This document shows, one piece after another, positions 28,670 to 60,851 of a stretch of 64,000 bases of DNA. This stretch comes from an uncultured Nitrospiraceae bacterium. Lineage in GTDB: Bacteria > Nitrospirota > Nitrospiria > Nitrospirales > Nitrospiraceae. Location: positions 1,728,001 to 1,792,000 of the forward strand of contig CAVSTP010000004.1 in the NCBI GenBank assembly GCA_963730935.1, read 5' to 3'. Within the stretch, counting starts at the first letter, position 1. Each line of letters opens with the position of its first letter. The notes below the pieces were generated by a model. That model was not told the origin of the DNA, did not search any database, and saw nothing but the letters and a program-made list of their open reading frames with translations. A program made the translations under genes and the position numbers.

Positions 28670-28993
28670 CTCTGGCCATCCAACGTCGTGAACCACCTGC
28701 GCCAGGTTGAACGCCGCAGTTGGACACATGCACTACCCCACTTAATTTGCGGACAGATCGTTTTTCGTTTGTGACCATCCTTTTTGTAAAGACCTCAGTT
28801 TCTTCTGAGGCTCTACTTCCGATGAGATTCTGGTATTACTCGCCTACTAATATGTGACGAGGTTCAAGGCTATCAAACGAGGAGGTCGCTCTGATACGCC
28901 TGGGCGGGATTGCTAAGCTACGAAGCGCCGAGTATCGCTTGAACACCCATGGCTCGTGAGGCATCCCCTTTAAAGGCTTTGCGAACGCCGCCT

Positions 28994-29113
28994 GACCTGC
29001 GGTTTACAAAATTTAGAAAATACAACCTCAGACAACCTAAACCCGACGAGACTGACTGTGAAGCGGGCGCAGATGGGGCTGGTTTGTCCTGTATGGTAGC
29101 AGCATAGTAGCAG
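28994..29113 (+). repeat. Dispersed att-like repeat, copy A
   Basis: GACCTGCGGTTTAC..CAACCTCAGACAACCTAA..TGTCCTGT..GGTAGCAGCATAGTAGCAG, similar to copies at 33085, 50236, 51494, 58206. Confidence 0.85.
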
Positions 29114-29371
29114 AGGGCACCTTATCCCAGAGCGAGAGAAACTACTGTCCGGAGTCCTAGGGCTAATGTTGCGCTCACGCCACCGCGCCGGCATTCATTC
29201 TCGCTGATAGTCATTCGAATACCTACGAAGACACACTAAGGTTTTTGCCTTGGGTGTTACTAGGTGAACGCCTAGTCTCTTATGCCGAACAGTTTATATA
29301 TATACTCTGTGGCGAGATGAACCCGTATTGTAGTGAGTGATATGAGGCCATTTTCACCGTAGGAGCTAGAA

Positions 29372-30931
29372 ATGACGCGATTGTCCAGAAGGCCACTGGC
29401 CTCAACACTACCCCTATTGCTGTTGGCAGGCCTGTTCCTTAACGCGTGTAGCAGTGGTGGAGGCGATGGAAGCGCAGGCACTCCGCCGGGAAGCCCTCCG
29501 CCGTCTGGACCCACACCCCCACCGCCCGTCGCCGGACTCGTTCAGCAAGGCTATCTTAAAGCGTCAAATACCGGCGCTAACGATAATCTTGGATTTAATG
29601 TCGTGCTTTCCGGTGACACGCTGGTCGTGGGAGCCCCGCAGGAAGGAAGTAGTGCGACTGGGGTGAATGGCGATCAAGCGAACAATAACGCGCAAAACAG
29701 CGGCGCCGTCTATGTCTTCACGCGGACCGGCGGCGTCTGGACCCAGCAGGCCTATCTCAAGGCCTCGAATACCGACGCTAATGACCAGTTCGGGGTAGGC
29801 GTTGCGATCTCAGGCGACACGCTTGCGGTTGGAGCGCAGTTTGAGGCCAGCAATGCGACGGGCATCAATGGCGATCAGACCAACAATAGTGCGCCCCAGG
29901 CCGGAGCCGTCTATGTGTTCACGCGGACCGCAGGGGTCTGGTCTCAGCAGGCCTACCTCAAAGGTCATAATACTGAAGCGGGCGACCAGTTCGGCGTCAG
30001 CGTGGCCGTAGAAGGCGACACGTTAGCCGTCGGAGCGATCGCCGAGGCCAGCAATGCAACGGGCGTCAATCATGATGGGAGTAACAATAACGCGCCAGGC
30101 AGCGGCGCCGTCTATGTGTTCACGCGGACCGCAGGGGTCTGGTCTCAGCAAGCCTATGTCAAAGCCTCAAACGCCGGAGGCCTATTCGGGAATAGTGTTG
30201 CTCTTGCCGGCGACACGCTCGCGGTGGGCGCGCAGTTTGAGGCCAGTAATGCGACGGGCGTGAATGGCAATCAGACCGACACAAGCGCGCCGCTCGCCGG
30301 AGCGGTGTATGTGTTCACGCGGACCGGAGGGAACTGGACTCAGCAGGCCTATGTCAAGGCCTCGAATACCGATGCCGAGGATAGATTCGGAGAAGATGTC
30401 GCTCTAGACGGTGACACCCTTGTGGTCGGAGCGCGGTTTGAAGCCAGTGCTGCAAGCGGGGTCAATGCCGATCAGACCGACAATAGTGCGACCAACGCCG
30501 GAGCCGCCTATGTCTTTACACGGACGGCGGGGGTCTGGTCTCAACAAGCTTATCTCAAAGCCTCCAACGCTGGCACTGGTAAGAATTTCGCCGGAACCAT
30601 TACCATTGCGGGAAATATCGTGGCTGTTGGTTCACGGCTCGAAGATAGCAATGCGACCGGGATCAATGGCAATCAGGGGAACAATGGCGCATCGGATAGC
30701 GGCGCGGTCTATGTGTTCAAGCGTACCGCCGGGGTTTGGGAGCAGACAGACTATTTAAAAGCCTCCAACACGAACGCGGGGGACCAGTTTGGGGATGCTG
30801 TCGCTATCTCTGGCAATACGCTAGCCATTGGAGCATGGTTTGAAGGAAGCAGTGCGACCGGCGTGAACGGCAATCAAGCCGATAACAACGCCCCAAACAG
30901 CGGGGCCGTCTATGTATTCGACGGTCTGTAA
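29372..30931 (+). CDS. FG-GAP (integrin-alpha-like) repeat beta-propeller lipoprotein
   Basis: Lipobox LNAC, Pro-rich linker, about seven ~62 aa repeats 'YLKASNT..D.FG..VA..GDTLAVGA..E..GAVYVF'. Confidence 0.88.
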   Translation: MTRLSRRPLASTLPLLLLAGLFLNACSSGGGDGSAGTPPGSPPPSGPTPPPPVAGLVQQGYLKASNTGANDNLGFNVVLSGDTLVVGAPQEGSSATGVNGDQANNNAQNSGAVYVFTRTGGVWTQQAYLKASNTDANDQFGVGVAISGDTLAVGAQFEASNATGINGDQTNNSAPQAGAVYVFTRTAGVWSQQAYLKGHNTEAGDQFGVSVAVEGDTLAVGAIAEASNATGVNHDGSNNNAPGSGAVYVFTRTAGVWSQQAYVKASNAGGLFGNSVALAGDTLAVGAQFEASNATGVNGNQTDTSAPLAGAVYVFTRTGGNWTQQAYVKASNTDAEDRFGEDVALDGDTLVVGARFEASAASGVNADQTDNSATNAGAAYVFTRTAGVWSQQAYLKASNAGTGKNFAGTITIAGNIVAVGSRLEDSNATGINGNQGNNGASDSGAVYVFKRTAGVWEQTDYLKASNTNAGDQFGDAVAISGNTLAIGAWFEGSSATGVNGNQADNNAPNSGAVYVFDGL

Positions 30932-31574
30932 GGGCATCAACGGATGACTTCATTCTTGGGATGGGGGACCGTGCTCGTCTAGCGCATGGCCGGCCACTGA
31001 TGATTTGATAAATAATCAGAGTTTAGTCAACCATGCACCGAGGTTCGGGAAGGGGCAATCCAGCGGTAATGTCGCAGGCATACTGCCCTGATACCTAACA
31101 TGTCACCAAAGGCCGAAAAGAGAGGGCCATGACCTGCGTTTATTAGTTCGCTGCCATTTCACAAACTCCTAACAGAGGGCGCAGTTAGAAAGTCCTTCCA
31201 CCATACGGCTACCGGTTAAAATCGAACTTGTGTTAGCGGAAGGTGCTGGAGCCGGAGACCCCAGGGCATTGAATGGTGCTATGCAGGTAATCGCCCGAGA
31301 TACGTCTGACCTATCAAAACAAGGGTTTTCACCCATGTCAGAACTGACAGTAGGCAGGACTCTTGCCCGATGGTAGAAGTCTCTCAAAAATGGAGTTGAC
31401 CTCGAGTCAGGCTTCGCAGATCCCGCAGGCCGTCGTGGTATGTGGAGTCTACAGCCGGTCCAGATCTCGCAGGTACTCTCCGCAACATCTGGAGGCGATG
31501 GCTGAATACTTTTGAGCTTCCACCCTCCGTGGTATGCACCCTTCAATGGCAATGGCAATGGAAAGGAGGTCGTG

Positions 31575-31937
31575 ATGGGTTTCCTCGCTACAATCTTTGA
31601 AAAGCTCGGTTTTGGCCCTGCCGCTGCCCAAGCAGCTCCCGAGGCCACACCGACGGCGCCTTCGAGGGCGATCACTGCAATCGATGTCGTTGCCAAGCTC
31701 GAGAACCTGGCAGGCAAGCGCGACGAAAAGCTCAATTGGAAGGTGTCGATCGTGGATCTCCTGAAGCTCCTCGGAATTGACAGTAGCCTTAATGCGAGAA
31801 AGGCACTGGCCACAGAGCTCGGATGTCCCGCCGAGAAAATGGGCGATTCGGCGCAGATGAACATGTGGCTGCACAAGACAGTGCTGAAAAAGCTAGCTGA
31901 CAATGGAGGCAACATTCCGAAGGAACTCGTGGATTAG
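31575..31937 (+). CDS. DUF3597 domain protein
   Basis: LNWKVSIVDLLKLLGIDSSL.ARKALA.ELG..DSAQMNMWLHK..NGG; AGGAGG RBS. Confidence 0.88.
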   Translation: MGFLATIFEKLGFGPAAAQAAPEATPTAPSRAITAIDVVAKLENLAGKRDEKLNWKVSIVDLLKLLGIDSSLNARKALATELGCPAEKMGDSAQMNMWLHKTVLKKLADNGGNIPKELVD

Positions 31938-32054
31938 TGGAGCCGAGAAACGAATGGGAAGTGTCTTGCTTGCCGAAGCAGCTGGCAGCGCGTTCGCGCA
32001 TGCGCGTCAGTTCTCGTGCGTAAACGCTCAATCATCTCACCGCAGAATGGAGAT

Positions 32055-32348
32055 ATGCCGATGGACATTACAAGTCTCATCATCAACCTGATCAGTGGCG
32101 TGGTCGGCGGGAACGCGGCGGGCACAGCCATGCCGGACAAGAGCCTTGGCACCTTGGGAAATTCTTTGGCCGGCTTGCTGGGAGGCGGGGTCGGAGGGGC
32201 GATCCTGCAAGCGATCGTCCCGGCTTTGGCTCAAGGGGGCGGCAGCGACATCGGGACGATCATCGGCAACATCGCTGGAGGCGGAGTCGGTGGCGGTCTG
32301 CTCATGATCCTCACCTCGATGATCAAGAAAGCCTTCGCAGCAGCGTAA
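32055..32348 (+). CDS. Small glycine-rich membrane protein
   Basis: LISGVVGGNAAG..GNSLAGLLGGG..GGGVGGG; GGAG RBS. Confidence 0.75.
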   Translation: MPMDITSLIINLISGVVGGNAAGTAMPDKSLGTLGNSLAGLLGGGVGGAILQAIVPALAQGGGSDIGTIIGNIAGGGVGGGLLMILTSMIKKAFAAA

Positions 32349-32491
32349 TCTCCTGCCGGGGCATCGTATGGATCGAAGATGCGCCCAGCGGTTCACCGCA
32401 GACCGTATCGGCGTCGAGCAATGTAGATTAAGAATATCAGCAAAGATCGTGTCAAAGGCTTATCACCTCGTACCATGAAGGAGGCTGGAAC

Positions 32492-32767
32492 ATGAGAACA
32501 CTTCCATTGGCTGCAGGCATTGCGATCCTTTCAACAATGGGATTCATCAGTGCGCCATTCGCGGGAGAAACCTCCGCCACGATGGAGAAAGCGAAGGGAG
32601 AAACGAAGGCCCTCGTCGAGGAAGGGAAGGGACAGACGAAAGGCGCCGTGGAAGACGTGAAGGGCAACAAGACGAGCGCCGAGGTAGAACGCACAAAAGG
32701 CAAGGCAAAGGCTGAGACGGAACGCGCTAAGGGACAAGCTAATGCGATGAAGGAGAAGGCCAAATAG
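32492..32767 (+). CDS. Small secreted Lys/Glu/Ala-rich protein (CsbD/LEA-like)
   Basis: GGAGG RBS, signal peptide, repeated 'E.AKG' units. Confidence 0.7.
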   Translation: MRTLPLAAGIAILSTMGFISAPFAGETSATMEKAKGETKALVEEGKGQTKGAVEDVKGNKTSAEVERTKGKAKAETERAKGQANAMKEKAK

Positions 32768-32966
32768 GACTAGCTAGGAAGTTCAGAGAAAGACTGCAGC
32801 ACGAAGCACTTTTTGGCAGGCTCGATAAGGGGCACCCGGGGGGAGGAGGTTTGTGATGGCAACATCATGGAACATGGTGCGTTAGGCTGGCAACAAGCTG
32901 GCACGAGGATCGAACTCCGCTAAATACGGATCAACTAAGTCCGTGTTGGGGTTGATCGCTATTATT

Positions 32967-33060
32967 TTGCTCGACCATATCTTCATAACCGTCACGGATC
33001 TTGGCCGCTCTATTGCCTTCTACGAGAGGGCTCTCAAGCCGCTCGGGATCACAGGCCACG
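32967..33060 (+). pseudogene. VOC/glyoxalase N-terminal fragment
   Basis: 'LLDHIFITVTDLGRSIAFYERALKPLGI' then similarity is lost just before repeat copy B. Confidence 0.6.
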
Positions 33061-33084
33061 CACTGTCAACAATTACAGGCCCCG

Positions 33085-33212
33085 TACCTACGGTTTACGA
33101 CTTTCAGCAAGTCCAAACTCAGACAACCTGAACCCAAACAACAAACCAGGTAGTTCCTGAGATGGGTACAGGTGGGCCTGAGTTTTCCTGTTCTGGTAGC
33201 AGCGTGGTAGCA
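33085..33212 (+). repeat. Dispersed att-like repeat, copy B
   Basis: ACCTACGGTTTACGA..CTCAGACAACCT..CTGGTAGCAGCGTGGTAGCA. Confidence 0.85.
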
Positions 33213-33257
33213 AGATGCTGAGGACCAAGAAGCTCTTAAAGGGGTCACTGATGTAAG

Positions 33258-33295
33258 TGGTGAGCCGAGTGGGACTCGAACTCAAAACCCTCTGA
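33258..33295 (-). other. tRNA 3'-half remnant (Lys-like), probable att scar
   Basis: Reverse complement TCAGAGGGTTTTGAGTTCGAGTCCCACTCGGCTCACCA: T-loop GTTCGA, acceptor strand and CCA; no 5' half. Confidence 0.65.
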
Positions 33296-33334
33296 GACAC
33301 TTGGCACAGAGCGTGGGTAAGTACCCAAAAGATT

Positions 33335-33931
33335 CTACGAGTAGTAGTAAGCAGAGATGAGAATGACGATCGCGAAGCTGGCTAGCAGACATGCTTCACC
33401 TCGATAAAACCAATTCAAATGTGTTTTATGCAGAGCTGTGGAATGGAGCAAGGCTCCAGCTGTGATCCATCCATATGCGACTCCAGTGCAGATCGCTGAA
33501 AAGCTAACCAAATAGGGAAATATTTCATTGGATACTCGACTAGGAAAAATAAGAAACGCAAAAACTAAGTTCTTTGGGTTTACCAGGGTTGTGAAGAACA
33601 CCCGACGAAAACTGATCGGATGAGAAGCCTCAACTTTGTGTTCTTCCCACCGCCAGAGCCATACAGCCATCTGAGCAAGATAGATGCTGCACAAGATGCG
33701 GAGAAGCTGGCCAACCGTTGAGTGAATTCTAGAAACAGGTTCAATTACCTCAACCAAAAAGGATATAGAAATGAGATACGCTAACAACTCAGCGAGAATG
33801 AGGTTAAGGCTAGCCCGTAAACCACGTGTCACCCCCGATACAAAGAGAAGTGAATTCGTCGGCCCTGGAACGGCTAGCACGCCAAAGACTTCAAAAACAA
33901 AGATGGCTTGGCTGTATTCGATGACACTCAC
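33335..33931 (-). CDS. LysE/RhtB-family translocator
   Basis: PGPTN motif, 'FFTTLVNPK', six TM helices; AT-rich relative to the core genes. Confidence 0.85.
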   Translation of the reverse strand: MSVIEYSQAIFVFEVFGVLAVPGPTNSLLFVSGVTRGLRASLNLILAELLAYLISISFLVEVIEPVSRIHSTVGQLLRILCSIYLAQMAVWLWRWEEHKVEASHPISFRRVFFTTLVNPKNLVFAFLIFPSRVSNEIFPYLVSFSAICTGVAYGWITAGALLHSTALHKTHLNWFYRGEACLLASFAIVILISAYYYS

Positions 33932-34086
33932 AGCCAGCGAATGGCGGAAGTGTCCGGAAGGGCTGGTTTTGACTTGGCGCGTGACTTCCGGCTGGCCTCA
34001 GCAGTAATGGACTTCTTCCACTTTGAAAAAGGCTTCCGCCGCCGCTTTTTCCGGCTGACTTTTTTTGGGGGGCGCTTTGTCTTCAT
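33928..34086 (-). CDS. Small Lys/Arg-rich ORF (52 aa) coupled to the LysE gene
   Basis: MKTKRPPKKVSRKKRRRKPFSKWKK...WL*; stop overlaps the LysE GTG (GTGA); RBS weak. Confidence 0.35.
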   Translation of the reverse strand: MKTKRPPKKVSRKKRRRKPFSKWKKSITAEASRKSRAKSKPALPDTSAIRWL

Positions 34087-34160
34087 AAGTGCGCAGCTCG
34101 ATTTCGATCAAGATCAAGGGTCTAGGCGCTCGGGATAAAGCACTGCCATAGGTGGAAAGA

Positions 34161-34622
34161 CTAATTTCTGTTGACCAATCCAAGGAAGCTGATCGACTCT
34201 CTGGCAGCGGCTCGGGCTTTGATCGCCGGGTTGAGTAATCTACCAGGATCAGCATGGGAGCCGATTTCCGAGACCCGCTTACATTGATTGATCACTTCAT
34301 TGAGTGAGACCGACGCCTGAGTCCGGCGAGGATCCGATGAAGGAATCTGCGTCAAGAGCGTTTCCGCATGCCTTGAGGCCTCTGCGCAATGATAGATAAT
34401 GGCCTTGGCATCGCCCATGCCACCATGCGCCACCATCTCCTCGGCATTTTTGATCAAGGCGTCTGCCTGCTCTTGGAGCGTACTGTCAGAGGGCTGAGCA
34501 GCATGCACGGCGGCATGGCTCGAACCCAGCGACTTGTCTGGATCCACGCTTCCCACGCTTCCCACTAGACAGACAAGGAGTATGAGTGATGCCAGGGCTA
34601 GGGATTTGCCGTTGAATCCCAT
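34161..34622 (-). CDS. Periplasmic small metal-binding protein (SmbP-like)
   Basis: Signal peptide, His-containing helical 'AEEMVAHGGMGDAKAIIYHCAEASRHAE'; TAATG overlap with the upstream gene. Confidence 0.6.
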   Translation of the reverse strand: MGFNGKSLALASLILLVCLVGSVGSVDPDKSLGSSHAAVHAAQPSDSTLQEQADALIKNAEEMVAHGGMGDAKAIIYHCAEASRHAETLLTQIPSSDPRRTQASVSLNEVINQCKRVSEIGSHADPGRLLNPAIKARAAARESISFLGLVNRN

Positions 34623-35125
34623 TAGTACCGTCCCGGCAATTCCTTGGGTGTGGAGGTCAGTTCACGATAGAGGCGGTGAAATTCTTCATTGGTCAGGCCC
34701 GGGTCTTGGAGCTTGGCAAGAGTAGTCTCGTCGATGGGGTACTCGACCGTGTCGTCGAAATTTGACGAGGCAATAGTGACGAACCTGGGAGGAAAGAGCC
34801 GCTCCGGCAACAGAATACCCACACCAAGATTGTATTTCACCGCCAGCCGGATGGCCTCTCTCGCATTGTCGGCCGGTACATCGCGTCCCAAGCCGATGTT
34901 CTGCGGCGGCTGGCCGCGCTTGACAAATTGAAAATGCACATTGGTCATCCCGGCATGCGCGAATTCTTCGGTGAGGGCAGGCACTTGATTCTTATACTGA
35001 TTGGCCAGCACGACTTCCACACGGCTGACCGGCGGAATGGAGGGTCCTTCCGCTGAAACGGACAGTCCTGGCAGCACCGCAGAGGTCGTGAACGCAATGG
35101 CAAGGATGCGTCGTGACCATTTCAT
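34622..35125 (-). CDS. Exported hypothetical protein in the multicopper oxidase operon
   Basis: Signal peptide MKWSRR..; ATGA overlap with the upstream gene. Confidence 0.7.
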   Translation of the reverse strand: MKWSRRILAIAFTTSAVLPGLSVSAEGPSIPPVSRVEVVLANQYKNQVPALTEEFAHAGMTNVHFQFVKRGQPPQNIGLGRDVPADNAREAIRLAVKYNLGVGILLPERLFPPRFVTIASSNFDDTVEYPIDETTLAKLQDPGLTNEEFHRLYRELTSTPKELPGRY

Positions 35126-35946
35126 GGGTTCACCCTGAAACTGAATTCCGCGGCAGTCGTCCCCTTTTCCGCGACCGTCACGGTACGTTCCTGCTCGCCT
35201 AACATCGGATGCCAAGCCTTGATGCGATAGGTCCCCGCCGGAAGGTCAGGAATCGAGAAGGTCCCTTCGAGGCCGGTGACGGCGTAATACGGATTCTCCA
35301 CGGCCAATCCATGCCCTTGCATGTACGGATGCATGCCGCATTGCATGGTCACACCGCGGCGGTTCGCCGTAAAACGGATCGTATCGCTGGTCCCCGATTT
35401 CGTCAGAGCCGGGCGGTGGAACATGATGTAGATATGCTCACGCTCCCGTTCGTAGAACTGCAAGTCGTGCGAGACCGAGTCCAAATTCTTCACGATGAGC
35501 GGATGGTGATCTCGCACCACGGAGACGAACGGCACGAATTGGCAGATGTTCGCCTCGAGCCGTGTCTCCTCGAACGCAAACGGCTTTCCCTTTTCAACCC
35601 CTTCTATCGTCACGACCACGTCTTTCAATCCACCTTGCGCCCCCACGTTCACCTGCCGCAGCTGCCGATATCCTGTCCCGTCGGACAGCGCACCACAATA
35701 GACGCGATCAGGATAGCGCCAGAGTTCAAATGCGGTGGGAACCGGGACATCCCCGACAAAGGTAACGGTGCCCGTCACTGTCCCGCCGTTCGTCACACCT
35801 GTCTCTTCATAGGCCGAGACGGCCGTCGGCACAATGATCGAGCAGCCCAGCACGAGCACGATCCAGAAGGTAGCACTCATCTTTCGAGGCTTCAGCATGA
35901 TGATCAAATCGGGCGTCGCGCCCATGGGGGAGCAACGCTCCCCCAT
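35122..35946 (-). CDS. Carboxypeptidase-regulatory-like/cupredoxin-like exported protein
   Basis: GTVTGTV, CQFVP, 'SHD', CGMHPYM (C-x2-H-x2-M), G.FSIPDLPAGTY.IKAWH; start uncertain. Confidence 0.8.
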   Translation of the reverse strand: MGERCSPMGATPDLIIMLKPRKMSATFWIVLVLGCSIIVPTAVSAYEETGVTNGGTVTGTVTFVGDVPVPTAFELWRYPDRVYCGALSDGTGYRQLRQVNVGAQGGLKDVVVTIEGVEKGKPFAFEETRLEANICQFVPFVSVVRDHHPLIVKNLDSVSHDLQFYEREREHIYIMFHRPALTKSGTSDTIRFTANRRGVTMQCGMHPYMQGHGLAVENPYYAVTGLEGTFSIPDLPAGTYRIKAWHPMLGEQERTVTVAEKGTTAAEFSFRVNP

Positions 35947-35961
35947 GCGTTGTGACGCGGC

Positions 35962-50369: not shown

Positions 50370-50526
50370 ACCGAGACTGCGAGATTTGAAAACACTTGGG
50401 CCTCGAGACTATCGGGCGCGATCAGTTCAGACTCGCGGCAACATCCCGACCTTATTGACCCAAGTGTGTCTCATAATCCCCTCCTGTGGAGCGGGAACGA
50501 GCGAAGCATTCCCCAAGAAGCGTGTT

Positions 50527-51310: not shown

Positions 51311-51352
51311 AGCCCTGCTGTTGGTAATCATTGATGCAGTCACGTTCGATGC

Positions 51353-51487: not shown

Positions 51488-51493
51488 CGCTTT

Positions 51494-51625
51494 GACCTGC
51501 GGTTTACGAATTTCAGAAAGTCCAATCTTAGACACCTAACCCACAAGAAACCACAAAGGAGGCAGCCCCTGATGTGGCTACAGATGGGCCTGAGTTGTCC
51601 TGTCCTGGTAGCAGCGTGGTAGCAG
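51494..51625 (+). repeat. Dispersed att-like repeat, copy D
   Basis: GACCTGCGGTTTACGAA..CCCACAAGAAAC..TGTCCTGTCCTGGTAGCAGCGTGGTAGCAG. Confidence 0.85.
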
Positions 51626-52161
51626 GTGAAAAGGCGATTTTGAAGGAGTGACCTTTTCTCTAGGTCACACCCTTTCTACCTTGAAAAAAAAGACGGAGAC
51701 CCAGACCATGACAATCCCAAAGACGCGATTGATGAGGGCGAGGTCGTGTGTGGTGCCGGGATTATAGAGATGAGCACAAATTATGAGCACGGTACAGCCA
51801 CCGCCAATGCTCATCGTCAAATGCTTGATGTGTGACCAGCGGGTAAGCCCGAGCGGACCAGATATAACGTCCAGACAGTAATTTCAGACTGAGTGAGCAT
51901 ATCCAAAACGAATACAACTGCCTGATCGTTTTCCTGCGTCTGCTCCATATGCAGTCGTCTCGCTGTTTAGGGGCATGATGCACAGCCTGTCATAGGGGAA
52001 TCAATAGGACCAAATGGGGTAAGGAAATACGTGCATTTAACGTGCATCAACTGGGCTCCGGAGCCATGCAACGAGCATCGTGCGATTAACTCCGAATTGT
52101 TACCTTGCTGGCTGGATCAGAGTATCCCGAGCCAGTGCTAGTCCAGAGAGGGCTTTTTGAC

Positions 52162-53658
52162 TCAGAATCGCAGTGTCATATCGACGCCGACCATCGTCAT
52201 CGCCTTTTCCGTACCGAGATCAAACGCTCCTCTGTTGAAGTTGCGATAGTAGCCGACTTCGGGGCGAATCATAACGACATCGTTCAGCTGATGGCTCAAC
52301 CCGAGGCTGCCGCTGTAGTAGTGGCCTGCGAACCCTGATCGCGTCCCATGCTCGTCCCTCCACCACTCGTTCCGTACCGTGATATAGTCTCGCTCAGAAA
52401 TTTGAAACATTGTGTAGTTGACGACCCCATAGGTTAGGGACAGGCCCGGTACGGTCGCCCCGATTCCGCCCCCGCCACCGAACGAGCGCGCCGGACCGAT
52501 GCTGGGAGAGCCACCCACCGCCGCATCACGCTCCCACATATAATATCCCTCCGTCTTCGTATGAATTTCCCGTGTGAACCGGTGCTGCCATGTGCCCACA
52601 ATGTAATTGAAATTAGTGTGTCCGAACGCCTGACCATCGAGTTCAAAATAGCGGTACTTCGCATTATTGATGGCGTTCAGGACTAAATAGAACGAATCGT
52701 TGTTATCCAAGGCCACCCAGCGCACGCCGACCATGCCTGTCGGAGTGGCGCCTTGATACCATGGGGCCATGTCCGTACCCGCATGCACGCCACCTTGGAC
52801 GGTCCACTGCGGATTGAGCATGATGGTCGCCATCGCGCCCGTTTGGGTGTAGGTGTCATAGGTAAATAGGAGGGAGTGTGTTCCCAAGTAATTGTCGGGG
52901 GCAAATTGCGTTTCAATATCGGGCGTCGCGACCCAGCGGCCCACGCGGAGCACCAACCCCTGGGCAACACCGGGAATATAGGTATCCATGTAGAGTTCGC
53001 TGGGATCAAACCCATAGCGGGCATTGTGCTTGGCGTATTGGTTGTACAGCCAACCCCCGGCCGTCATATATCTGTAGTCAATGCCGTACAGCCCTGTGGC
53101 GCGGAATCCGAAGTCGACGTGATCGGTTCGTACGGTGTCCACCTCGCGCTCGATGCGGAACACAGCCTGATTTAACACGATGGAGTTGGGCATGATCCAA
53201 TAAGACGTTGGCATATTGGAATTCTTGTTGGTGCTCCAGTTATACGAGCCGTTAATCCACCCGTATGTCCTGATCCTGTTTGATGTGAGAAAGTCTCCAA
53301 ACGGCGCGTCTTTGAGGGCCCTCTGCAATGGGTATTCTTTCGTGCTGAGTGGAAGGCCGAGGACCGGCGCGCCTTGGTATTCCGACATGGGAAAAGGCGG
53401 CGCATCCCACGGAGACGGCAACGCCCGGCGAGGCAATTGTTCCGAAGCTGGAGCCGTACCCTTGAATTCATCTGCATAGGCATCAAAGAGTCTATTGCCC
53501 AACCAGGAAGGCACTTGATCTGTTTTCGCTTCAGTCTTTTGAGCACCTGCCATGGACGACATCGCCCACATGGCCACCGCCGCGCATGTACTTGCCAGCA
53601 CCAGTGGTCCAAGGGCCATAGAATCCGTTTCCAGCAATTGTTGGTGATCGATAGGCAA
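52162..53658 (-). CDS. Outer-membrane beta-barrel porin (DUF1597/OmpL-like, often kdp-associated)
   Basis: Signal peptide, amphipathic strands, C-terminal 'MTLRF'; start uncertain. Confidence 0.75.
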   Translation of the reverse strand: MPIDHQQLLETDSMALGPLVLASTCAAVAMWAMSSMAGAQKTEAKTDQVPSWLGNRLFDAYADEFKGTAPASEQLPRRALPSPWDAPPFPMSEYQGAPVLGLPLSTKEYPLQRALKDAPFGDFLTSNRIRTYGWINGSYNWSTNKNSNMPTSYWIMPNSIVLNQAVFRIEREVDTVRTDHVDFGFRATGLYGIDYRYMTAGGWLYNQYAKHNARYGFDPSELYMDTYIPGVAQGLVLRVGRWVATPDIETQFAPDNYLGTHSLLFTYDTYTQTGAMATIMLNPQWTVQGGVHAGTDMAPWYQGATPTGMVGVRWVALDNNDSFYLVLNAINNAKYRYFELDGQAFGHTNFNYIVGTWQHRFTREIHTKTEGYYMWERDAAVGGSPSIGPARSFGGGGGIGATVPGLSLTYGVVNYTMFQISERDYITVRNEWWRDEHGTRSGFAGHYYSGSLGLSHQLNDVVMIRPEVGYYRNFNRGAFDLGTEKAMTMVGVDMTLRF

Positions 53659-53955
53659 CTGATGACTGTATCTGAGGCTGTGTTAAAACAGTGTTTATCC
53701 CGCAGCGTGCCCCATCAAAATTTCATAAAAAATCATCTCTAGGAGTGTGGCCTGCCAACGGTGGGACGCACTATCGAGCTCGTGACTCGTGGAGCGAATG
53801 TTGCTTGGCGGATGCACTCAAGAACTTCAGTTGGTGACGTTCACATGAAAGGTGGCTTTTTGCTGAAGGGTAGCGTGGAGATTTGAGCGGAAGAGTAAAT
53901 GAACTTCTCTTCACTGAGTACGATGTCAATGCCAGGAGTGCCGAGCGGAAGAGAG

Positions 53956-55758
53956 TTACCTGATAAGCTGAAAAGGGACGTCTGTCAGGACAACACGATC
54001 CTTGAAAAGAAGGGCGGTTTTTAACAGCAGGGCGCGCTGACTATGTAGCAGATTCTGCCACCACCTCGCTGGCAAGATCTCGGGTACGACCACCGTGACC
54101 CAACACTCAGGGTCTTTCTCTAAATGCTCCTCAATATAGGCAATGAGTGTTCTCAGAACAGAATGTTGTATTGCTGGCACCACAACTAAGGGAACACCGC
54201 AGCCCCACTGTGCCCATCGTGTTTCTATAACGGCTGTCTCTTCCCGGTTCATATCGACAAGCACCGCACGAACATTGCCACCTTGGCTTCGCGCATAATC
54301 CACTGCACGCACGACCGCTCCATTCACACCGCCAATCGGGATGAGCGTCAAGCTCCGACGAGGCCGAAGTGGACGGGCATTGCGGGTTAAAGCCACTTGT
54401 TCGCTCGTCGCGATGTAGTGGGAATGGATAGCCTGAAACATCAGAATCAAGAGAGGCAGCAGTAAGACCACGATCCAAGCACCTTGTGTGAACTTGGTGC
54501 TCGCGATGATGACGGTGGCAGTCGCCGTCGCGAATGCTCCAATGCCATTTATGGTAAATTTGTGCCTCCACCCTGGTCCTTGCTTCGTTAGCCAGCGTTT
54601 GACCATCCCCGTCTGGGAGAGCGTGAAGGAGAGAAAGACGCCGACCGCATACAAAGGAATGAGCGCGTGAGTCTCGCCTCGAAACAACACAATGAGCAAG
54701 CAGGATAAGCTACCCAAAATGATGATCCCGTTGGAGAACACCAGACGATCGCCCAGACAGGCCATCTGATGCGGCATATAGCCATCCTGGGCCAAGATAC
54801 ACGCTAAGCGCGGAAACCCGGCGAACGCGCTATTCGCCGCGAGGAGCAGGATTAACATGGTTGCACTCTGAATGAGGTAATAGAAGAATCCTTCGCCAAA
54901 GGTGAGCCGAGCGATCTGTGAGACCACAGTTTCATCATCCTTCGGCAGCACACCGAGCTGGAACGCCAAGATACTAATGCCCACGAACAAAGCTGCGAGA
55001 ATTGCGGCCATGGCTAGCATCGTGAGCGCAGCATTCTTGGCCTCTGGCGCCTTGAAAGCCGAGACTCCATTAGAAATCACTTCGATGCCTGTTAAGGCGG
55101 TACATCCCGAAGCAAAAGCCCGTAGGATAAGGAACAAACTCATTGCGTCGACCGCTTGTCGGGCCGGCATCACAACAGCAGATTGATTATGGCTTTGGGC
55201 CAGCCCAACGCCGATCATGAGAATGAACGACGCGATAAACACATAGGTTGGCACTGCAAAGATTCGGCCGGATTCACGGACTCCGCGTAGGTTCAGAAAC
55301 ATGACACTTGCTATGGCGGCAATGCACAGTGCTTCACGGTACGGAAACAAGCCTGGAACTGCAGAAGTGAGGGCGGCAATGCCGGCAGCGGTGCTAACGG
55401 CCACTGTGAGAATGTAATCAATGATGAGGGCTGCTGCTGCCGTGAGTCCTGCCCACGAGCCAAGATTTGACCTCGCCACAATATAGGCTCCACCTCCGGC
55501 CGGATATTCAAGAATGATTTGTTGATACGAGAGGGTCAGAATGATGAGAAGTAGGACGATCGCGAGACTGATGGGGACTGACCACGTCACCGCGGCTGTG
55601 CCCGCCAGTACTAAAATAAGTAGGATTTCCTCCGTGGCATAGGCGACGGAGGATAGTGCATCGGACGAAAAAACGGCTAAGGCAATACGCTTGGATAGAC
55701 GTTCATGCGCAGCCTGCGCGGTTTTGAGGGGATCGCCTAACAGCCAACGTTTTATCAA
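53956..55758 (-). CDS. APC-family permease, KimA/YdaO-like K+ transporter
   Basis: SSDALSSVAYATEE, GGGAY, DYILTVAVS, ALTGIEVISNG, LIPLYAVGVF, 'WWQNLLHSQ'. Confidence 0.88.
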   Translation of the reverse strand: MIKRWLLGDPLKTAQAAHERLSKRIALAVFSSDALSSVAYATEEILLILVLAGTAAVTWSVPISLAIVLLLIILTLSYQQIILEYPAGGGAYIVARSNLGSWAGLTAAAALIIDYILTVAVSTAAGIAALTSAVPGLFPYREALCIAAIASVMFLNLRGVRESGRIFAVPTYVFIASFILMIGVGLAQSHNQSAVVMPARQAVDAMSLFLILRAFASGCTALTGIEVISNGVSAFKAPEAKNAALTMLAMAAILAALFVGISILAFQLGVLPKDDETVVSQIARLTFGEGFFYYLIQSATMLILLLAANSAFAGFPRLACILAQDGYMPHQMACLGDRLVFSNGIIILGSLSCLLIVLFRGETHALIPLYAVGVFLSFTLSQTGMVKRWLTKQGPGWRHKFTINGIGAFATATATVIIASTKFTQGAWIVVLLLPLLILMFQAIHSHYIATSEQVALTRNARPLRPRRSLTLIPIGGVNGAVVRAVDYARSQGGNVRAVLVDMNREETAVIETRWAQWGCGVPLVVVPAIQHSVLRTLIAYIEEHLEKDPECWVTVVVPEILPARWWQNLLHSQRALLLKTALLFKDRVVLTDVPFQLIR

Positions 55759-56004
55759 GATGGCCCCCGTTGGCTGAGCACTGTACCGAACCAGATATTA
55801 ATACTGTGTAAAAAGCGCACTTCTTCTTATTAAAAGGCACCTACATCTCGTTACCAGCGATGGGTTATTACCGGGCGAAATGCAGCTACGCATACGGAGA
55901 GCCTGCGCTTGAAGATTTGTCGCAACAAAAAGAGGAGTAAGAGGCACGGATCCCTTGCAGGCCACCGGTTTCAAGATCAGTCTCTTGTCATAAGCTGCAG
56001 TGGC

Positions 56005-56184
56005 CTAGGCGGGCAATACTGCTGCGATCACCGTTCGGATCGTTCTTAGTAGCCGCCATTTCCGACCTACCGTCCGAGGCTGTGCAGCATGAAGCAAACA
56101 CACAGCCGATCCTTCACGGATGGTGGTGGCAACGCTGGAACAGTGAGAACACGTCCACTCCGTATACTCAGCCCTATTGTTCAT
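56005..56184 (-). CDS. Small hypothetical protein with CxxC...CxxH
   Basis: MNNRAEYTEWTCSHC...VCLLHA; GAGAGG RBS-like sequence. Confidence 0.35.
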   Translation of the reverse strand: MNNRAEYTEWTCSHCSSVATTIREGSAVCLLHAAQPRTVGRKWRLLRTIRTVIAAVLPA

Positions 56185-56494
56185 AACGCTAAGCCCCCTC
56201 TCTTGAGCCAGTACCGCCACAATCCTCGCAAACCCGCGCCACTGCGGTTCTGCTCCCTACGGGCAATTTTCCGAAAACCGATATCCTAAAGCTTCAGCGT
56301 GTGAAGAAGATTAGCAAGAGTACTATTGAAATCCCGCCGGGGCCAATGAAAAGGCATTCATGAAGGGGGGTGGGGTCGTAAAATTTCCCCCCGGGGTCAC
56401 CTAGAAATGCTACACGGGAAAAACAAACGTTCGGTATCCAGGAGGCACCCACGAACCACGCACTACAAGCTTCGTAGTCGTGTTATTCGCATGT

Positions 56495-57781
56495 TCAAAG
56501 TGTCGGAATGTCTTCTTCAGCCATTGGCGAACTTAGTGCTCGTAATTCCAGCCCTTCTATCTCTTGTAACGTTCTGCCCGCAATACCTTGGAGATCCCCA
56601 TACATACCGACCGTCGCTTGCATCACTCGATTTATCTGTTCTTCTCGCTTGGCCCATTGTTTTATAATCGCTTTTTTTTCTTTATTGAGATCCTCTTGCA
56701 TAGAGGAGAAGGACTCGACGATGGCTTCAACTCGATGGCGGAAGCGGGGACCCGTCAGGTATTGATAGATCATCTCGGTCTTGGTTTGCCGACCTTCAGA
56801 CGCCTGCCGCGCGCAGTTCACTTCAATCAACAAATGTCGCAGAGCAATGGCAACAGGTATGATCGCTCTGGGGTGTGTGACCCAAACGCCTTCGACAAGT
56901 TCGAATGTCTCTATACCTTTAGGCAAAGCATGACTGACAATTACAGCAATTTCAGCCTTTGAAATCCGTTGATCGTCACGAAGTTTAGAGAGCCAACTAT
57001 CGCTCCAATTTTTTGTCCGTTTCGTTTCCCAAAGAATCGTACCACAAGGTTGTCCAGACAGACCCACAACATGATGGAGCGCATCGCCACCATGCTCGCC
57101 TTTTGGAACAGGACTAATCATGTCTAATGGGAATTTGACAGTTAGCAAGGACTCAAGTTCTAGTTCTTGGACTTCTCCTTGAAGTTGCTGAGAACCCTGC
57201 TCGGCCTTGCGCATCAGTTCTTCAATCTGTTTCTGCATTGAGGCGATCGTTTGCTCTTTTTCAAAAACTTTGAGTTTAAGCCCCTCCTCGGCTTCTTTCT
57301 TGGCCTGTTCTCGTATGGCAGAGAGCCCTTCATGGACTCGTTTTTCAACCGTCAGATCAATTTCTCTCTTCGCATCGTCCAACTCACGCTGCTTTCTAAG
57401 CAGATCGGCTTGTGCTTTCTGAGCCTCGGCTAGTTTGGCATCGCGTTGGGTGAGAACTTCATGCAGATCGGTAATTTCTTTTGCCTGTAGATCGAGATCG
57501 TGTTGTAACGCGACTTTTGCTTTTCTTGCTTCTTCGGCCGCGATCCTGCCGCGCTCCGCTCGGACTTTTTCGTCAACCTGTTCATCGAGGTGCTCTCTTG
57601 CTTTTACGATTGCGTCCTCTCGCCCACGAATCCCGGCTTCACGCTTGGCGATATCAATGTCCTTTTGAGTGAGACGTTTCTCATATTCATGGCGGGTGGA
57701 TTCAAGAAGCGGTGCGGCGAGGGACTCTGTCAGCCTGATTTCCGTCTTGCAAGAAGGGCAGATGATGGTTGGTTCGTTCAT
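56495..57781 (-). CDS. DUF2130 domain protein
   Basis: CPSC knuckle, long coiled coil, GSQQLQGEVQEL.LE, VPKG..GGD, ILWETKRTKNWS..W..KL; GGAGAGG RBS. Confidence 0.88.
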   Translation of the reverse strand: MNEPTIICPSCKTEIRLTESLAAPLLESTRHEYEKRLTQKDIDIAKREAGIRGREDAIVKAREHLDEQVDEKVRAERGRIAAEEARKAKVALQHDLDLQAKEITDLHEVLTQRDAKLAEAQKAQADLLRKQRELDDAKREIDLTVEKRVHEGLSAIREQAKKEAEEGLKLKVFEKEQTIASMQKQIEELMRKAEQGSQQLQGEVQELELESLLTVKFPLDMISPVPKGEHGGDALHHVVGLSGQPCGTILWETKRTKNWSDSWLSKLRDDQRISKAEIAVIVSHALPKGIETFELVEGVWVTHPRAIIPVAIALRHLLIEVNCARQASEGRQTKTEMIYQYLTGPRFRHRVEAIVESFSSMQEDLNKEKKAIIKQWAKREEQINRVMQATVGMYGDLQGIAGRTLQEIEGLELRALSSPMAEEDIPTL

Positions 57782-58205
57782 AGCGTGTACCTCTCCCTAT
57801 TTTCCACAAAAGCGGGAAAACAGGCCATATTGAGCCCCATTATATAGGGGTTCCATGTTCTGTCAATACGACATGTGGTAGTACATGCAGCTACAGTGAG
57901 GATGCTGGGGGATAACAAGCAAGAATGTAAGTTTCTAAATGAAGCCAACGGCTTGCAGGATAAGATTGCGCGTTTATAAGCGATGAAACCCGAAGCTCAA
58001 GGCCGAGGAAACCAGGAAGAAGGATTGACCTCAACACTTCTTAGTCAACATTGAAAGCTTGGTATCCCCAATAGGAACATGAGCCTTTCAATGCCGCATC
58101 TCGCCCATCTCGTCATCCCCTTTTCAGGAGAAATTAGGATGGCAGCCTGAAGAAGGGATTGGCCACTAATCTATGGGTAGAATCATCTCTCAGTATGAGC
58201 TGAGT

Positions 58206-58340
58206 GACCTGCCGGTTTACGAATTTCCAAAACTCCAACCTCAGACAACCTAACCCCACAAGAAACAACAAATCAGGATACTCCCGACCTGGCGCCTGAT
58301 GGGGCTGAGTTGTCCTGTCCGGGTAGCAGCGTGGTAGCAG
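58206..58340 (+). repeat. Dispersed att-like repeat, copy E
   Basis: GACCTGCCGGTTTACGAA..CCAACCTCAGACAACCTAACCCCACAAGAAAC..GGTAGCAGCGTGGTAGCAG. Confidence 0.85.
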
Positions 58341-58473
58341 ATGGACTTAGTGAGATAGAGGATGAATCTGGGGAAAAACGTAGAGCGTGGTGTACTCTCG
58401 TTTTAGGACGTGTAGTGCCCTAAAACGGGAGTGCGGACAACTTTCAAACGACGTTCCTCTCCTTCTCCGATCG

Positions 58474-59781
58474 TCAGGCTGCTAGCTTCCGCTCACCCCA
58501 GATGAAACTCACCTGGAAGAAGTTCACGTAGCTCGTCGGAAACTGTCCCGCGACCGCGCCTGCCAAGGGTCCGCGATTTTGGTTCACGGATAAGTCCCCG
58601 CCATAGGCCAATTCATAGCTGAACGCGACGTTGAGTTTGGGACTGGCTTGCCACTCTGCGCCCAGACCGAATCGGAATTGCTGGCCAACCGGCAGGGACA
58701 CCGTATAGTTCTTGTTCGGAATCATAGAACTATCCCAGGCAAAGCCGGTATTGAGGAGCCAGGCCTGATTGATCTGATAGCGGTTTCCCAGCGCCACATG
58801 ATAGGTATCCTGGTAATTGAGTGAGGTGGTTGTGCTTATCGTTGCGGGGGTGCCCGTCAGGCCAATTTCCACCTTGCCGAACTGACTCCAGTTCTGCCAG
58901 CCGAAATCCAGCATCATCGCCCAGCGATCCGTAAATTCGTGGTATGAACTCACCATCACTGATTGCGGTACTGTGACGCCCAGGTCAAGCTCATGGTTCA
59001 ACTGCCCGCGGTTTTGGAGAGCGGTTCCAATGGCACCCGACAACCCGGTGAAGGCGGGGGTGGCTGCGAAATTAAGTTTCACCTGGGAATAATAGGTGAC
59101 ACCGAATCTGGTGCCCTTTCTGGGTTCGTAGAGCAGCCCGACATTTCCTCCTCCTCCGACGGTGGTGTCGTTCATTGCCATGTTCCCATCCGGGGCGTTG
59201 GGGTTAAGGATTGTATCCCGGTTGTTAATGGCGGCACTGTAGTTCAGATACCCGATCATGACGTTGGCTGCGACCCCGATTGACCATTGCTCATTAATGC
59301 GATAGCTAAGTCCTGGCATGACGCTAAGGCCGAGCAGAGTGTTATTCAAGGCGTAATAGCGGCCGACCCAGCCGGAGTCGTAACTCATGGCGAGTCCAAA
59401 ATTCGAAAAGATGCCGAGTCCGATTTTGAAATCTTCCCCTAGACCGTGCACATAAAACATGCTCAAGGCCGGAAGGACGCCGATCGGATTACCGCCGCTG
59501 TTTCCATCCACCGTCGTTCCGGCGGTGGGAGAGAAGGCGACTCCCGCCTGCAGCAATTGCGCTCCACCCTGAAACTGGTTGCCTTCGAGCCGGCTCATGC
59601 CGGCGGGATTCTTGAGCAGCGTCGCGGGATCCTGCGCGCGGGCGGCCCAGCCGGCGCTGGCCAGACCGACATCTGCCGTCGCGATCTCGTAGAGCGAGAG
59701 GCCGCCTGCTTCGGCCGTGGATATGAAAAATGTGATGAGGCTGCAGACGGTCAGCACAAATCTTGTTGCTCGTGATTTCAT
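58474..59781 (-). CDS. FadL/OmpP1 long-chain fatty acid outer-membrane transporter
   Basis: Signal peptide, AGG..LYE, NPAGM hatch motif, W.NWSQF, beta-barrel pattern; ORF extends upstream to 59991. Confidence 0.87.
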   Translation of the reverse strand: MKSRATRFVLTVCSLITFFISTAEAGGLSLYEIATADVGLASAGWAARAQDPATLLKNPAGMSRLEGNQFQGGAQLLQAGVAFSPTAGTTVDGNSGGNPIGVLPALSMFYVHGLGEDFKIGLGIFSNFGLAMSYDSGWVGRYYALNNTLLGLSVMPGLSYRINEQWSIGVAANVMIGYLNYSAAINNRDTILNPNAPDGNMAMNDTTVGGGGNVGLLYEPRKGTRFGVTYYSQVKLNFAATPAFTGLSGAIGTALQNRGQLNHELDLGVTVPQSVMVSSYHEFTDRWAMMLDFGWQNWSQFGKVEIGLTGTPATISTTTSLNYQDTYHVALGNRYQINQAWLLNTGFAWDSSMIPNKNYTVSLPVGQQFRFGLGAEWQASPKLNVAFSYELAYGGDLSVNQNRGPLAGAVAGQFPTSYVNFFQVSFIWGERKLAA

Positions 59782-60762
59782 GCTCGGACGTCTTCTGGAT
59801 GAGCGGCATTCCCCCAGCCCAATCCTAAGACGGGCCCCCAGCCCACACGTTGGTGGTTGGCGGGCTTGCAACCCCACCGCTAAGTGCATTGTTGTACCGG
59901 CCTCGTTGCGAACGCATGGCGCGCCGATTCTGGTGACAGGAAGTCTTCCATACGGACGTTTTGCCATCGAAGTGATGGTGTTCATCAGCATCAGCCTCCT
60001 TTGTTTTGTGAATCGTCGTCCTTGTGTTCCAGAGGACTGTATAGGCTATATAGCTTAAGGTTTGTCGTCTCGGAACGGTTCACCACATTATGTCTCGTAC
60101 CTGCCGGAATGCCGACCCGTCTGAGACGGCCTGTGCCTTGCCATCGAAAATGATAGAACCTTCGCCGGCCTCAAAACGTTTGAACCGCTGGAATGATACG
60201 TGTGTCTCTTAGCAAAATCGAGGGATACTATCGTGGCTTAAGAAGTGGCAGAACTATTTCGCCCGATGTGGTTCCATCGGTTATTCATCTGTATTTGACT
60301 TTTCTGTAATTGGATTGAAAAGAAACCGATCGAGCCTGATAGCGGTCTTAGTCTGGAGTGGAATGTTTTCAAATCTCGCACCTCCGAAACAACACCTTTG
60401 TTGCTGCTGTGCTGCAGGGCAAACATGGGAAGCCGCGTGTGGCCCGTGGGGAGGGTGCGCCGATTAGGTAACGGTCAGACTTCGGAGGGACGGTCGACTA
60501 TAGTCGGCAACTGGGTGGCCAGCGCGACGAGCTGCAGTCAAATTCAAGGATGCGAAAACGCAAAGTCTGGTGGGGTTGCAGTCTTCTGGGGTGAAGGAAA
60601 TTTTCAAAGCTGAATACAAAGCTGGGATGGTGACAACGGCGCCAACCGACGCTCCTGCGCAGCCGGCGGCGACCGCTGCGCCTGCTCTCAAGTAATGAGC
60701 GTATCTGTGGATCAGCGCGGAGCAGCCCGGATGGATGGCGTCATATGGTTCATTGGTCCGCT

Positions 60763-60851
60763 GTCCTGTTAGCAGCGTGGGAGCAAACTGGGGAGTGTAA
60801 GGCTGCCAGATTTGAAAACACTACGGCCCCGAGACTATGGGGCCTGATCAG
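60763..60851 (+). repeat. Partial att-like repeat (copy F) plus a downstream segment shared with copy C
   Basis: TGTCCTGTTAGCAGCGTGGGAGCA then GATTTGAAAACACT..CGAGACTAT..GATCAG, matching 50383-50425. Confidence 0.65.

Follow-up and report, generated by a model that had tools for sequence, protein, structure and literature searches.

The repeats described here lie in a window of 64,000 nucleotides, the whole stretch analysed, on contig C4 of an uncultured Nitrospiraceae genome (G000). We concluded that the repeat is likely the distal half-site (attR), made up of arm doublet and anticodon-loop core, of a tyrosine integrase directed at tRNA-Thr. Judged from sequence comparison, this half-site probably rides, in trimmed form, in modules stacked at tRNA-Glu and serves there as a common joint at which cargo is exchanged; such a shared joint likely operates in accessory-gene exchange of nitrifying bacteria.

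Repeat copies in the window

The full-length repeat is called the 133-bp element; the full copies in the window measure 119 to ~134 bp (Table 1). The five full copies reported by the first-pass annotation are present, all on the + strand, and all five terminate in an arm doublet with an 11-bp period. A sixth, partial copy had been placed at 60763-60851: its arm end is real, but 60800-60851 lies outside the element and is the right-hand flank common to copy 3 (family D13). A 17-mer said to open every copy was found four times at ≤3 mismatches (0.18 expected by chance), but it is exact in one copy only; the fifth copy has a 1-nt insertion in this region and falls outside the four matches. The copies are only about 70-85% alike, yet the distance from core to arm is constant, with 63 of 90 copies measuring 133 bp. 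The repeat is not confined to the array: the host genome holds 32 copies at E<1e-3, on both strands and near many tRNAs. A contig of run X1 spans the junction at copy 3, with 5 differences and 1 gap across its 1043 nt of overlap. The element has no match in Rfam; its consensus fold is weak (1 of 22 pairs compensatory), and no attC-type folding site was found.

Table 1. Features of the repeat array and of the surrounding accessory stack (window positions).
Feature	Position	Strand	Remarks
Distal part of accessory stack behind tRNA-Glu(TTC)	17700..64000	.	Probable assignment; runs 29 kb further, to the end of C4
Decayed serine-recombinase C-terminal tail	28940..28995	+	Ends ...GFANAA-stop; stop overlaps copy 1; Glu fragment lost
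Copy 1	28994..29112	+	119 bp, internal deletion; tRNA-Thr core half (read as B' + overlap), then arm doublet
Glyoxalase N-terminal fragment	32964..33083	+	PF00903 positions 2-23 of 121, E 8e-4; cut off by copy 2
Copy 2	33085..33212	+	Core degenerate; T-arm absent
tRNA-Lys(TTT) 3'-end fragment	33258..33281	-	Third kind of attachment scar
First tRNA-Glu junction, between two serine-recombinase modules	45100..45209	-	Shared left half 45100-45117; tRNA-Glu 3' fragment 45118-45134; tail ...IVLAA-stop on + strand (D9); no element
Second tRNA-Glu junction	48325..48360	-	Fragment 48344-48360; no element
Third tRNA-Glu junction	50131..50237	-	Fragment 50150-50166; recombinase tail with one frameshift, stop overlaps copy 3
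Copy 3	50236..50368	+	Full copy of the 133-bp element
Copy 4	51494..51624	+	Begins 6 nt past the stop of a small ORF remnant
GAGCAC doublet	51770..51790	+	Putative arm site; resembles a different integrase arm family, found next to trimmed copies elsewhere
Fourth tRNA-Glu fragment and tail	58060..58150	-	Fragment 58060-58076; second tail type ...IRMAA-stop, + strand
Copy 5	58206..58339	+	55 nt beyond the recombinase tail stop
Copy 6	60735..60785 (approx.)	+	Arm end only; core absent

A tRNA-Thr integrase as the likely source of the repeat

The 17-mer corresponds, as proposed, to the region from anticodon loop to variable loop of the host tRNA-Thr(CGT), and identity with the target tRNA begins at the 7-nt anticodon loop. 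The intact tRNA-Thr(CGT) gene had been predicted beyond position 64000; it sits on another contig, C2, and a tRNA-Thr past the window was rejected because no tRNA gene occurs on C4 from the window to the contig end. Phage_integrase and Recombinase profiles gave no match in the window, in agreement with the absence of an integrase noted there. A recombinase does lie beyond the window, as had been anticipated, but it is a large serine recombinase and not a Thr integrase.

The partner of the repeat was found in relatives. There, a tyrosine integrase with a Phage_integrase domain, named IntA, adjoins tRNA-Thr and is accompanied by the same TGCTACCA doublet, which stands 115 bp away from the core; this pairing upholds the arm-type reading of the doublet. 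All six contigs that hold both an IntA homolog and the element (6/6) have island geometry, and three genomes (G001, G141 and G370) contain complete islands, with an element that retains the full tRNA half at one end and IntA plus a matching arm at the other. The IntA-type inner arm in G147 is first followed by another arm family, and no distal site was present within the 40 kb fetched for G244. Of the 371 genomes of the family, 41 carry an IntA homolog. In G000 no more than a 23-aa remnant of IntA is left, and matching arm sites with an integrase at the opposite end are absent from both the window and G000. The resident Thr integrase (C2:4864-6015) was rejected as cognate partner because its arm motif TGTGCTAG pairs with another arm family; the same logic that links IntA to the element links this enzyme to that family. 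A search of viral_contigs for a phage origin with one exact arm pattern returned 0 matches.

An accessory stack placed by synteny behind tRNA-Glu

The first-pass annotation had set the array at tRNA-Thr; synteny places it at tRNA-Glu(TTC), which lies 2.6-54 kb upstream of the window's core genes in 5/5 genomes (G006, G148, G013 and G003, with no tRNA-Glu match, and G005, with tRNA-Glu on a contig lacking the core block, were left out). The 2.6-54 kb behind tRNA-Glu differ largely in content between relatives. Four tRNA-Glu 3' fragments, most of them followed by serine-recombinase tails, and one tRNA-Lys(TTT) 3' fragment in the window had been overlooked. Beyond the window, C4 carries two more copies, three more Glu fragments and the large serine recombinase gene, which makes seven co-oriented Glu fragments counted from the window onward. 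Serine recombinase genes are found both where C4 ends, apparently in frameshifted form, and next to tRNA-Glu(TTC) on C1. The window thus appears to be the far part of an island stack behind tRNA-Glu(TTC), the join of C4 to the tRNA-Glu contig being suggested by synteny. Five of the eight copies in the array stand behind serine-recombinase tails, and two Glu junctions in the window carry no element. The composite of Glu fragment, tail and element occurs four times behind the intact tRNA-Glu of G147 and is the same as that at the third Glu junction of the window. The Glu loci of G009 and G142 have no copies; tails without element exist in G327 and G149, and none of these joins the two flanks of an element. 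The proposal of a tandem-accretion array without its own recombinase is supported by the Glu fragments, by the lack of a recombinase in the window and by the differing content in relatives. The array would have grown as serine recombinases integrated modules at tRNA-Glu; every insertion would have left behind a Glu fragment and a truncated recombinase-gene tail, and the recombinase genes would have been deleted afterwards.

Trimming at the outer edge of the core

In most copies the tRNA T-arm is missing, and the sequence stops precisely at the core's outer boundary. A fragment reaching the tRNA 3' end was found in none of the window copies and in 28 of 89 copies counted overall. Among copies with a core but an incomplete T-arm, 32 of 34 retain ≤6 nt of it, as random flanks do (P 6e-16 under uniform deletion, although the copies are not independent). 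In trimmed copies selected by their arms the core is 85-86% conserved and the segment next to it 65%; of 76 arm-selected loci, 9 begin past consensus position 3. The left flanks fall into 40 different families, and many copies lie immediately internal to the termini of islands that belong to other integrases (Glu, tmRNA, Lys). One and the same trimmed flank can be attached to different arm families, the change falling precisely at the end of the overlap (G000 C3:17175, L207; G292).

A fixed cut at the core edge is unexpected from ordinary integration. Secondary-site integration at the normal overlap was rejected as its source because the outer core half would then be target-derived and degenerate, and because of the two negative searches given below. 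Our leading guess is that the integrase might cut beside the near-palindromic core half (ACC-N3-GGT), with deletion then running to the next functional site. The reciprocal T-arm-only product was not found in G000 (one candidate was seen among L007-L087) and the flanks gave no target half-site consensus, so the guess gains no support from these searches. A cassette-like placement just past a stop codon was set aside as weak (9 of 40 flank families vs 11.7% in the control).

Cargo and probable exchange of neighbours

The cargo labels given earlier are mostly backed by Pfam or NCBIfam (FG-GAP, LysE, ArsR/Acr3/LMWPc, YjgF, DUF3015, BBP2 porin, DUF2130 and FadL), but KimA is only an amino-acid-permease-family match; the multicopper oxidase match is weak. 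Truncated genes do abut copies, as the glyoxalase start next to copy 2 illustrates. Among 28 copy pairs that share cargo the left flank differs in 24, and one family of near-identical bodies has unrelated left flanks. The switch falls at the core in L047/L058/L082, beyond position 27 between G000 copy 8 and G149, and 3 nt past the arm in run X5; these mosaics were compiled across species and not set on a tree. The Glu site at 50150 has another left side in runs X3 and X6. Strain breakpoints had been predicted to coincide with the repeats: some cargo swaps do map into the repeat, but several shared cargo blocks break elsewhere, among them cargo common at 93-96% (SLT gene, DUF2130), and synteny with the 96%-identical G148 breaks off the repeat at window position 25047. 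A clean excision joint between copies was found in none of the contigs of 8 runs. Read joints between copies in X1 and X4 have sides of <30 letters and are best explained by paralogous copies; runs X5-X8 do not cover the porin and permease, which was not counted as evidence.

The same cargo has different neighbours, and the switches fall within the repeat, both at its core and in other conserved blocks; this pattern is consistent with exchange of the homologous type, supplemented in places by site-specific recombination. The integrase would target the anticodon loop of tRNA-Thr(CGT) and similar tRNAs, IntA would bind the arm doublet, and homologous-type recombination within the repeat's three conserved blocks would be the main route of cargo exchange; in the presence of a Thr-targeting integrase, site-specific crossover at the 7-bp overlap would occasionally contribute. 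A bolder reading, which we regard as possible but doubtful, makes the element a universal adaptor throughout the family in Nitrospira: a half-site freed from its tRNA and planted in the islands of other recombinases as a tRNA-independent landing pad and swap point. If true, it would be cut by a precise one-ended reaction and placed inside the island ends of at least four other recombinases, and cargo would pass between islands of different target specificity.

Nitrospira are major nitrifiers, and tRNA-linked stacks house much of their accessory DNA. Should a single conserved att half-site connect islands of different integrases, arsenic resistance, oxidases and transporters could move between hot spots, and the cargo would not be tied to a single lineage of integrase. 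Such sites would escape standard island finders, which discard fragments internal to a tRNA. The fixed core-edge cut poses a precise biochemical question.

Alternative explanations

The integron-like cassette system put forward by the first-pass annotation makes each copy an active site, with a Thr integrase supplied in trans that moves circles of cargo plus site, so that crossover at the overlap is the main route of array change. Co-orientation of the copies in the array, constant core-arm spacing, different arm families joined to trimmed flanks exactly after the overlap, near-identical bodies with unrelated left flanks, and the IntA homologs in the family all speak for it. We nevertheless consider it unlikely: several switches occur inside the body or past the arm, most array copies stand behind serine-recombinase tails while two Glu junctions lack the element, and G000 has no IntA. 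Recombination of attR with attR is not the usual reaction of such integrases.

That the copies are inert scars, remains of decayed islands that ordinary deletion has shortened and that have no present role, would account for their divergence, for the many partial copies and loci that begin past position 3, for the loss of the cognate integrase from this genome and for the Glu loci of G009 and G142 without copies. Against this stand the abrupt rather than gradual loss of the T-arm, the number of left-flank families and the recent exchanges that map into the repeat, and we judge it rather improbable. The miniature-element alternative, also raised earlier, holds that a non-autonomous transposable element inserts by itself, and is very improbable. 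Sharp ends, fixed length and GA at both ends are in keeping with it; however, end and flank logos revealed neither terminal inverted repeats nor a target duplication, the right-hand GA also belongs to the inner arm beside IntA, no allele joining both flanks without the element was seen among the loci read, and the copies cluster in tRNA-linked stacks. Least credible is retention for a product (a small RNA, or a C-terminal IntA peptide made by reading through attP): the IntA frame is open in 62 of 65 copies (3 copies with stops vs 5.5 expected from column shuffles, P about 0.04), with the other five frames stopped in 16-65 copies, but Rfam has no match and the consensus fold is weak, copies that stand apart from any integrase gene are not accounted for by a tail, the frame is kept in only 9 of 31 length changes, and pN/pS is 0.71 vs 0.73-1.13 in the other frames.

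Comparison with known systems

Tandem accretion at tRNAs with lost integrases is an already known architecture. ICESt1-type CIMEs, in the portion of the source used here, arise by successive integration at one target with loss of the integrase and retention of att sites, and form chimeric att junctions between different integrases (PMC5704250). The present stack resembles them in its lost integrases and retained att sites; unlike the tandem partners described in that portion, which share one target gene, a Thr half-site is nested here, with a fixed cut, in Glu-, tmRNA- and Lys-targeting element ends. In Dehalococcoides ssrA islands the gene of the large serine recombinase DsiB overlaps the att site, many 3'-end repeats lie <100 kb from the target, and many islands lack an integration module (PMC3146451). 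The overlap of gene and att, the 3'-end repeats and the lost modules recur here, whereas the ssrA target is tmRNA and the parts of that article drawn on describe no second foreign att inside each end. Prochlorococcus tycheposons push older cargo outward from the tRNA as newer cargo arrives, leaving scattered partial tRNAs and integrase remnants (bioRxiv 10.1101/2020.12.28.424599). The present stack resembles them in this layout. They differ in that the partial tRNAs are those of their own tRNA, with no fixed internal fragment carrying arm sites in the sections consulted, and the replication and packaging modules reported for them are absent from this window. The Islander model, as outlined in the pages used, features an anticodon-centred crossover, a displaced 3' fragment at the island end and an integrase gene that may extend across attP (PMC4383910). 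The G001, G141 and G370 islands conform to it in crossover and displaced fragment; the trimmed copies, in contrast, are internal tRNA fragments of the kind its method rejects because integration splits off end fragments. Precise trimming combined with stacking across integrase families was not found in the openly available literature searched, and neither was a paper on this repeat.

Integrons and CALINs have co-oriented repeats between unrelated small cargo and no recombinase in the array. The array shares with them the co-oriented repeats, the unrelated cargo and the missing recombinase; unlike theirs, its site is tRNA-derived, carries arm doublets, has no attC-like fold and separates multi-gene blocks. 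IntA also scores far below the cut-off for integron integrases (56.7 vs 265 for TIGR02249).

Repeat Copies in the Window and in Relatives

The five full att-like repeat copies and the arm-only sixth described in the first-pass annotation were recovered in the window, well above chance expectation. One end of each full copy is a 17-bp piece that matches, exactly or closely, the stretch from anticodon loop through 3' anticodon stem to variable loop in the tRNA-Thr(CGT) gene of the host genome (G000), which bears out the proposed tRNA origin; the opposite end is the TGGTAGCA doublet. The usage of arm, core, overlap and B', like the behavior assumed for attR sites, follows the lambda paradigm. A tRNA gene search of the window found none, and, as had been claimed of an integrase, no recombinase gene was found anywhere in it.

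A profile of the five copies matched G000 36 times at E up to 1 and 32 times at E<1e-3 (18 minus, 14 plus). Seventeen of these 32 copies share a contig with a tRNA and lie ≤45 kb downstream of it (orientation same in 11, opposite in six); seven are in the window's own array, three are elsewhere and five are near the start of contig C3, a probable continuation of the Thr array. The core-plus-arm pattern was present in 56 of 371 family genomes (reversed control, 0). A single-copy query matched in 15 of 24 genus genomes vs. 0 of 16 genomes of other families. Searching genome_contigs with the arm pattern yielded 81 loci; among the 80 listed, 72 were titled Nitrospira or Nitrospirota. On this distribution the host is assigned to Nitrospira.

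The Element as the Probable Distal End of IntA Islands

In 19/371 genomes the tRNA-Thr 3' end is followed by the same doublet, and the gene behind it encodes a tyrosine integrase of ∼385 aa (IntA). The complete layout in genome G001 begins with tRNA-Thr and an inner doublet lying 115 bp from the core; IntA and 43 kb of cargo follow, and last comes the element, i.e., the 133-bp repeat read as the distal half-site (attR), which here retains the entire tRNA 3' half. This type of layout also occurs at tRNA-Arg(CCT) in G141 and behind a junction site in G370, and locus L044, an island of 3.4 kb, has an IntA end alone. All six contigs on which an IntA homolog and the element occur together show the island geometry; in three the distal copy is trimmed, that is, cut at the outer core edge and devoid of the tRNA T-arm. 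There are two counter-cases: in G147 the inner doublet first meets another arm family, and in G244 no distal site was found within 40 kb. IntA matches at E 1e-60 occur in 41/371 genomes; G000 has none at this threshold, and its sole trace is a 23-aa remnant. The element is an open frame extending IntA across attP, stop-free in 62 of 65 copies, but the signs that selection acts on the encoded peptide are weak.

Fixed Trimming

Of 90 distinct copies of the element, 63 measure 133 bp. On the T-arm side, 28 of 89 copies counted retain 25–28 nt, 58 retain 0–6 nt and three are intermediate. Among the arm-selected loci (60 of 81 in register; indels or short flanks excluded the other 21), 32 of 34 with the core present and the T-arm incomplete retain no more than random flanks would, and the core of these trimmed copies is 85–86% conserved. 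A pyrimidine lies just outside the cut in 42 of 46 independent flanks; no target consensus was found in the flanks, nor were reciprocal products of the cut in G000.

Addition of 41 metagenome loci, among which the trimmed share is biased because the pattern selected trimmed copies, brought the trimmed copies to 102 in 40 flank families. The three largest families, with 50 copies, consist of termini belonging to other elements, namely a Lys(CTT) arm family, tails of tmRNA type and tails of Glu type. Trimmed copies have a tRNA-end match to their left in 25/102 and to their right in 2 and 1 of 101; for arm-like doublets the counts are 19 (left) and 0 (right). The left flanks of loci L082, L017, and L078 belong to the Lys(CTT) arm family with a layout apparently homologous to the 133-bp element, suggesting that the integrases of this family and those of IntA type are related subfamilies. 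IntA-type islands with a trimmed distal site were seen at L243 and L242 (G084:C7) and at L244 and L245 (G148:C10). At the intact tRNA in G084, excision would mean loss of the tRNA gene, so that trimming may serve to fix islands where they are.

The Array as a tRNA-Glu Stack

Four tRNA-Glu 3' fragments lie inside the window, three followed by a decayed reading frame closing in AA-stop. These frames continue the VSPTG frame through which serine recombinase genes enter tRNA-Glu; a fourth such tail, with the Glu fragment absent, precedes copy 1. One serine recombinase gene lies at the end of C4 (the window's contig), 29 kb beyond the window, and a second adjoins tRNA-Glu(TTC) on C1. The window's core genes are found downstream of tRNA-Glu(TTC) at 24 kb in G147, 25 kb in G001, 54 kb in G009, 2.6 kb in G142, and 51 kb in G149. 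G147 has five Glu fragments, four directly followed by tail and element; the Glu loci of G009 and G142 carry no copies of the element. Five of the eight elements on C4 lie just inside a serine-module end. From the Glu fragments with tails, the serine recombinase genes and the core-gene synteny, we concluded that the stack belongs to tRNA-Glu. An intact tRNA-Thr(CGT) had been predicted past the window end; synteny in the five genomes and the Glu fragments locate the stack instead at tRNA-Glu(TTC).

The host tmRNA tag (ANQELALAA) resembles the AA-stop ends of all four tails, and the recombinase in its free form may be marked by a degradation tag, which would be removed upon integration. Phage BPs offers a known case of an ssrA-like tag gained or lost at attP (PMC4557955).

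Coordinates of features (window positions unless a contig is named)
Feature	Position	Observation
Core genes	6–18 kb	
Serine-recombinase tails, all AA-stop	28940–28995, 45120–45209, 50152–50237, 58064–58150	
FG-GAP repeat gene	29372–30931	Period 195–201 nt; paralogs 78–88% on C3 (three in row) and C4
Multicopper-oxidase-like cluster, two-component system	34161–44562	72–86% in many genus genomes
SLT lytic-transglycosylase gene	49333–50123	93–96% with G148 (two copies), G149, G146, G145
Host tRNA-Thr(CGT)	G000 C2:6021–6096	
L003, small element at tRNA-Thr(CGT)	G000:C2:3267–6015	Integrase, two helix-turn-helix genes, Rep_trans gene

Cargo Exchange and Breakpoints

Among 126 copies, 28 non-independent pairs share cargo (in several the spacer within one family is the sole difference, and in two the halves compared come from different tRNAs), and the left flank differs in 24 of the 28. 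Bodies in one family are 96–100% identical as far as the core. The eighth G000 copy has 1 kb in common with G149 at 95% and switches after position 27; sequencing run X5 has an identical tail and copy 3, and continues into other DNA from 3 nt beyond the arm (a single contig, 30 letters). Trimmed flanks also pass into other arm families exactly at the end of the overlap. In runs X3 and X6 the switch is instead at the Glu site. The suggestion that the repeats bound integron-like cassettes, with breakpoints at the repeats, is supported in part, in that some cargo switches lie in or at the repeat; speaking against cassettes, the SLT and DUF2130 blocks (93–96% with other species) lack ends at the repeat, and the break with G148 at 25047 is away from it.

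The stack most likely grew by serine-recombinase integration at tRNA-Glu, and the Thr-type half-site within the module ends most likely forms a common joint. Exchange at this joint would be mainly of the homologous type, within the element's conserved blocks, and may sometimes be site-specific.

The SLT gene is a single, recently mobile gene, near Lys or Arg tRNAs in the first three of its listed carriers, G148 (two copies), G149, G146 and G145. Position 55944/55945, with no repeat visible, is a recurrent breakpoint before the DUF2130 block in G148; in runs X1 and X8 the block is joined there to the left half of a Glu site.

Comparison With Known Systems

A literature search found no description of this repeat, of fixed trimming or of cross-family stacking. 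Tandem accretion with modules lacking an integrase is described for streptococcal CIMEs (PMC5704250), Dehalococcoides ssrA islands (PMC3146451) and tycheposons (bioRxiv 10.1101/2020.12.28.424599). The Islander description regards internal tRNA fragments as unexpected (PMC4383910), whereas the trimmed copies are such fragments. In the host assembly, contig ends match at 98–100% (C6 vs. C1:1-8400, C5 vs. the C2 end), and these matches are probably assembly overlaps.
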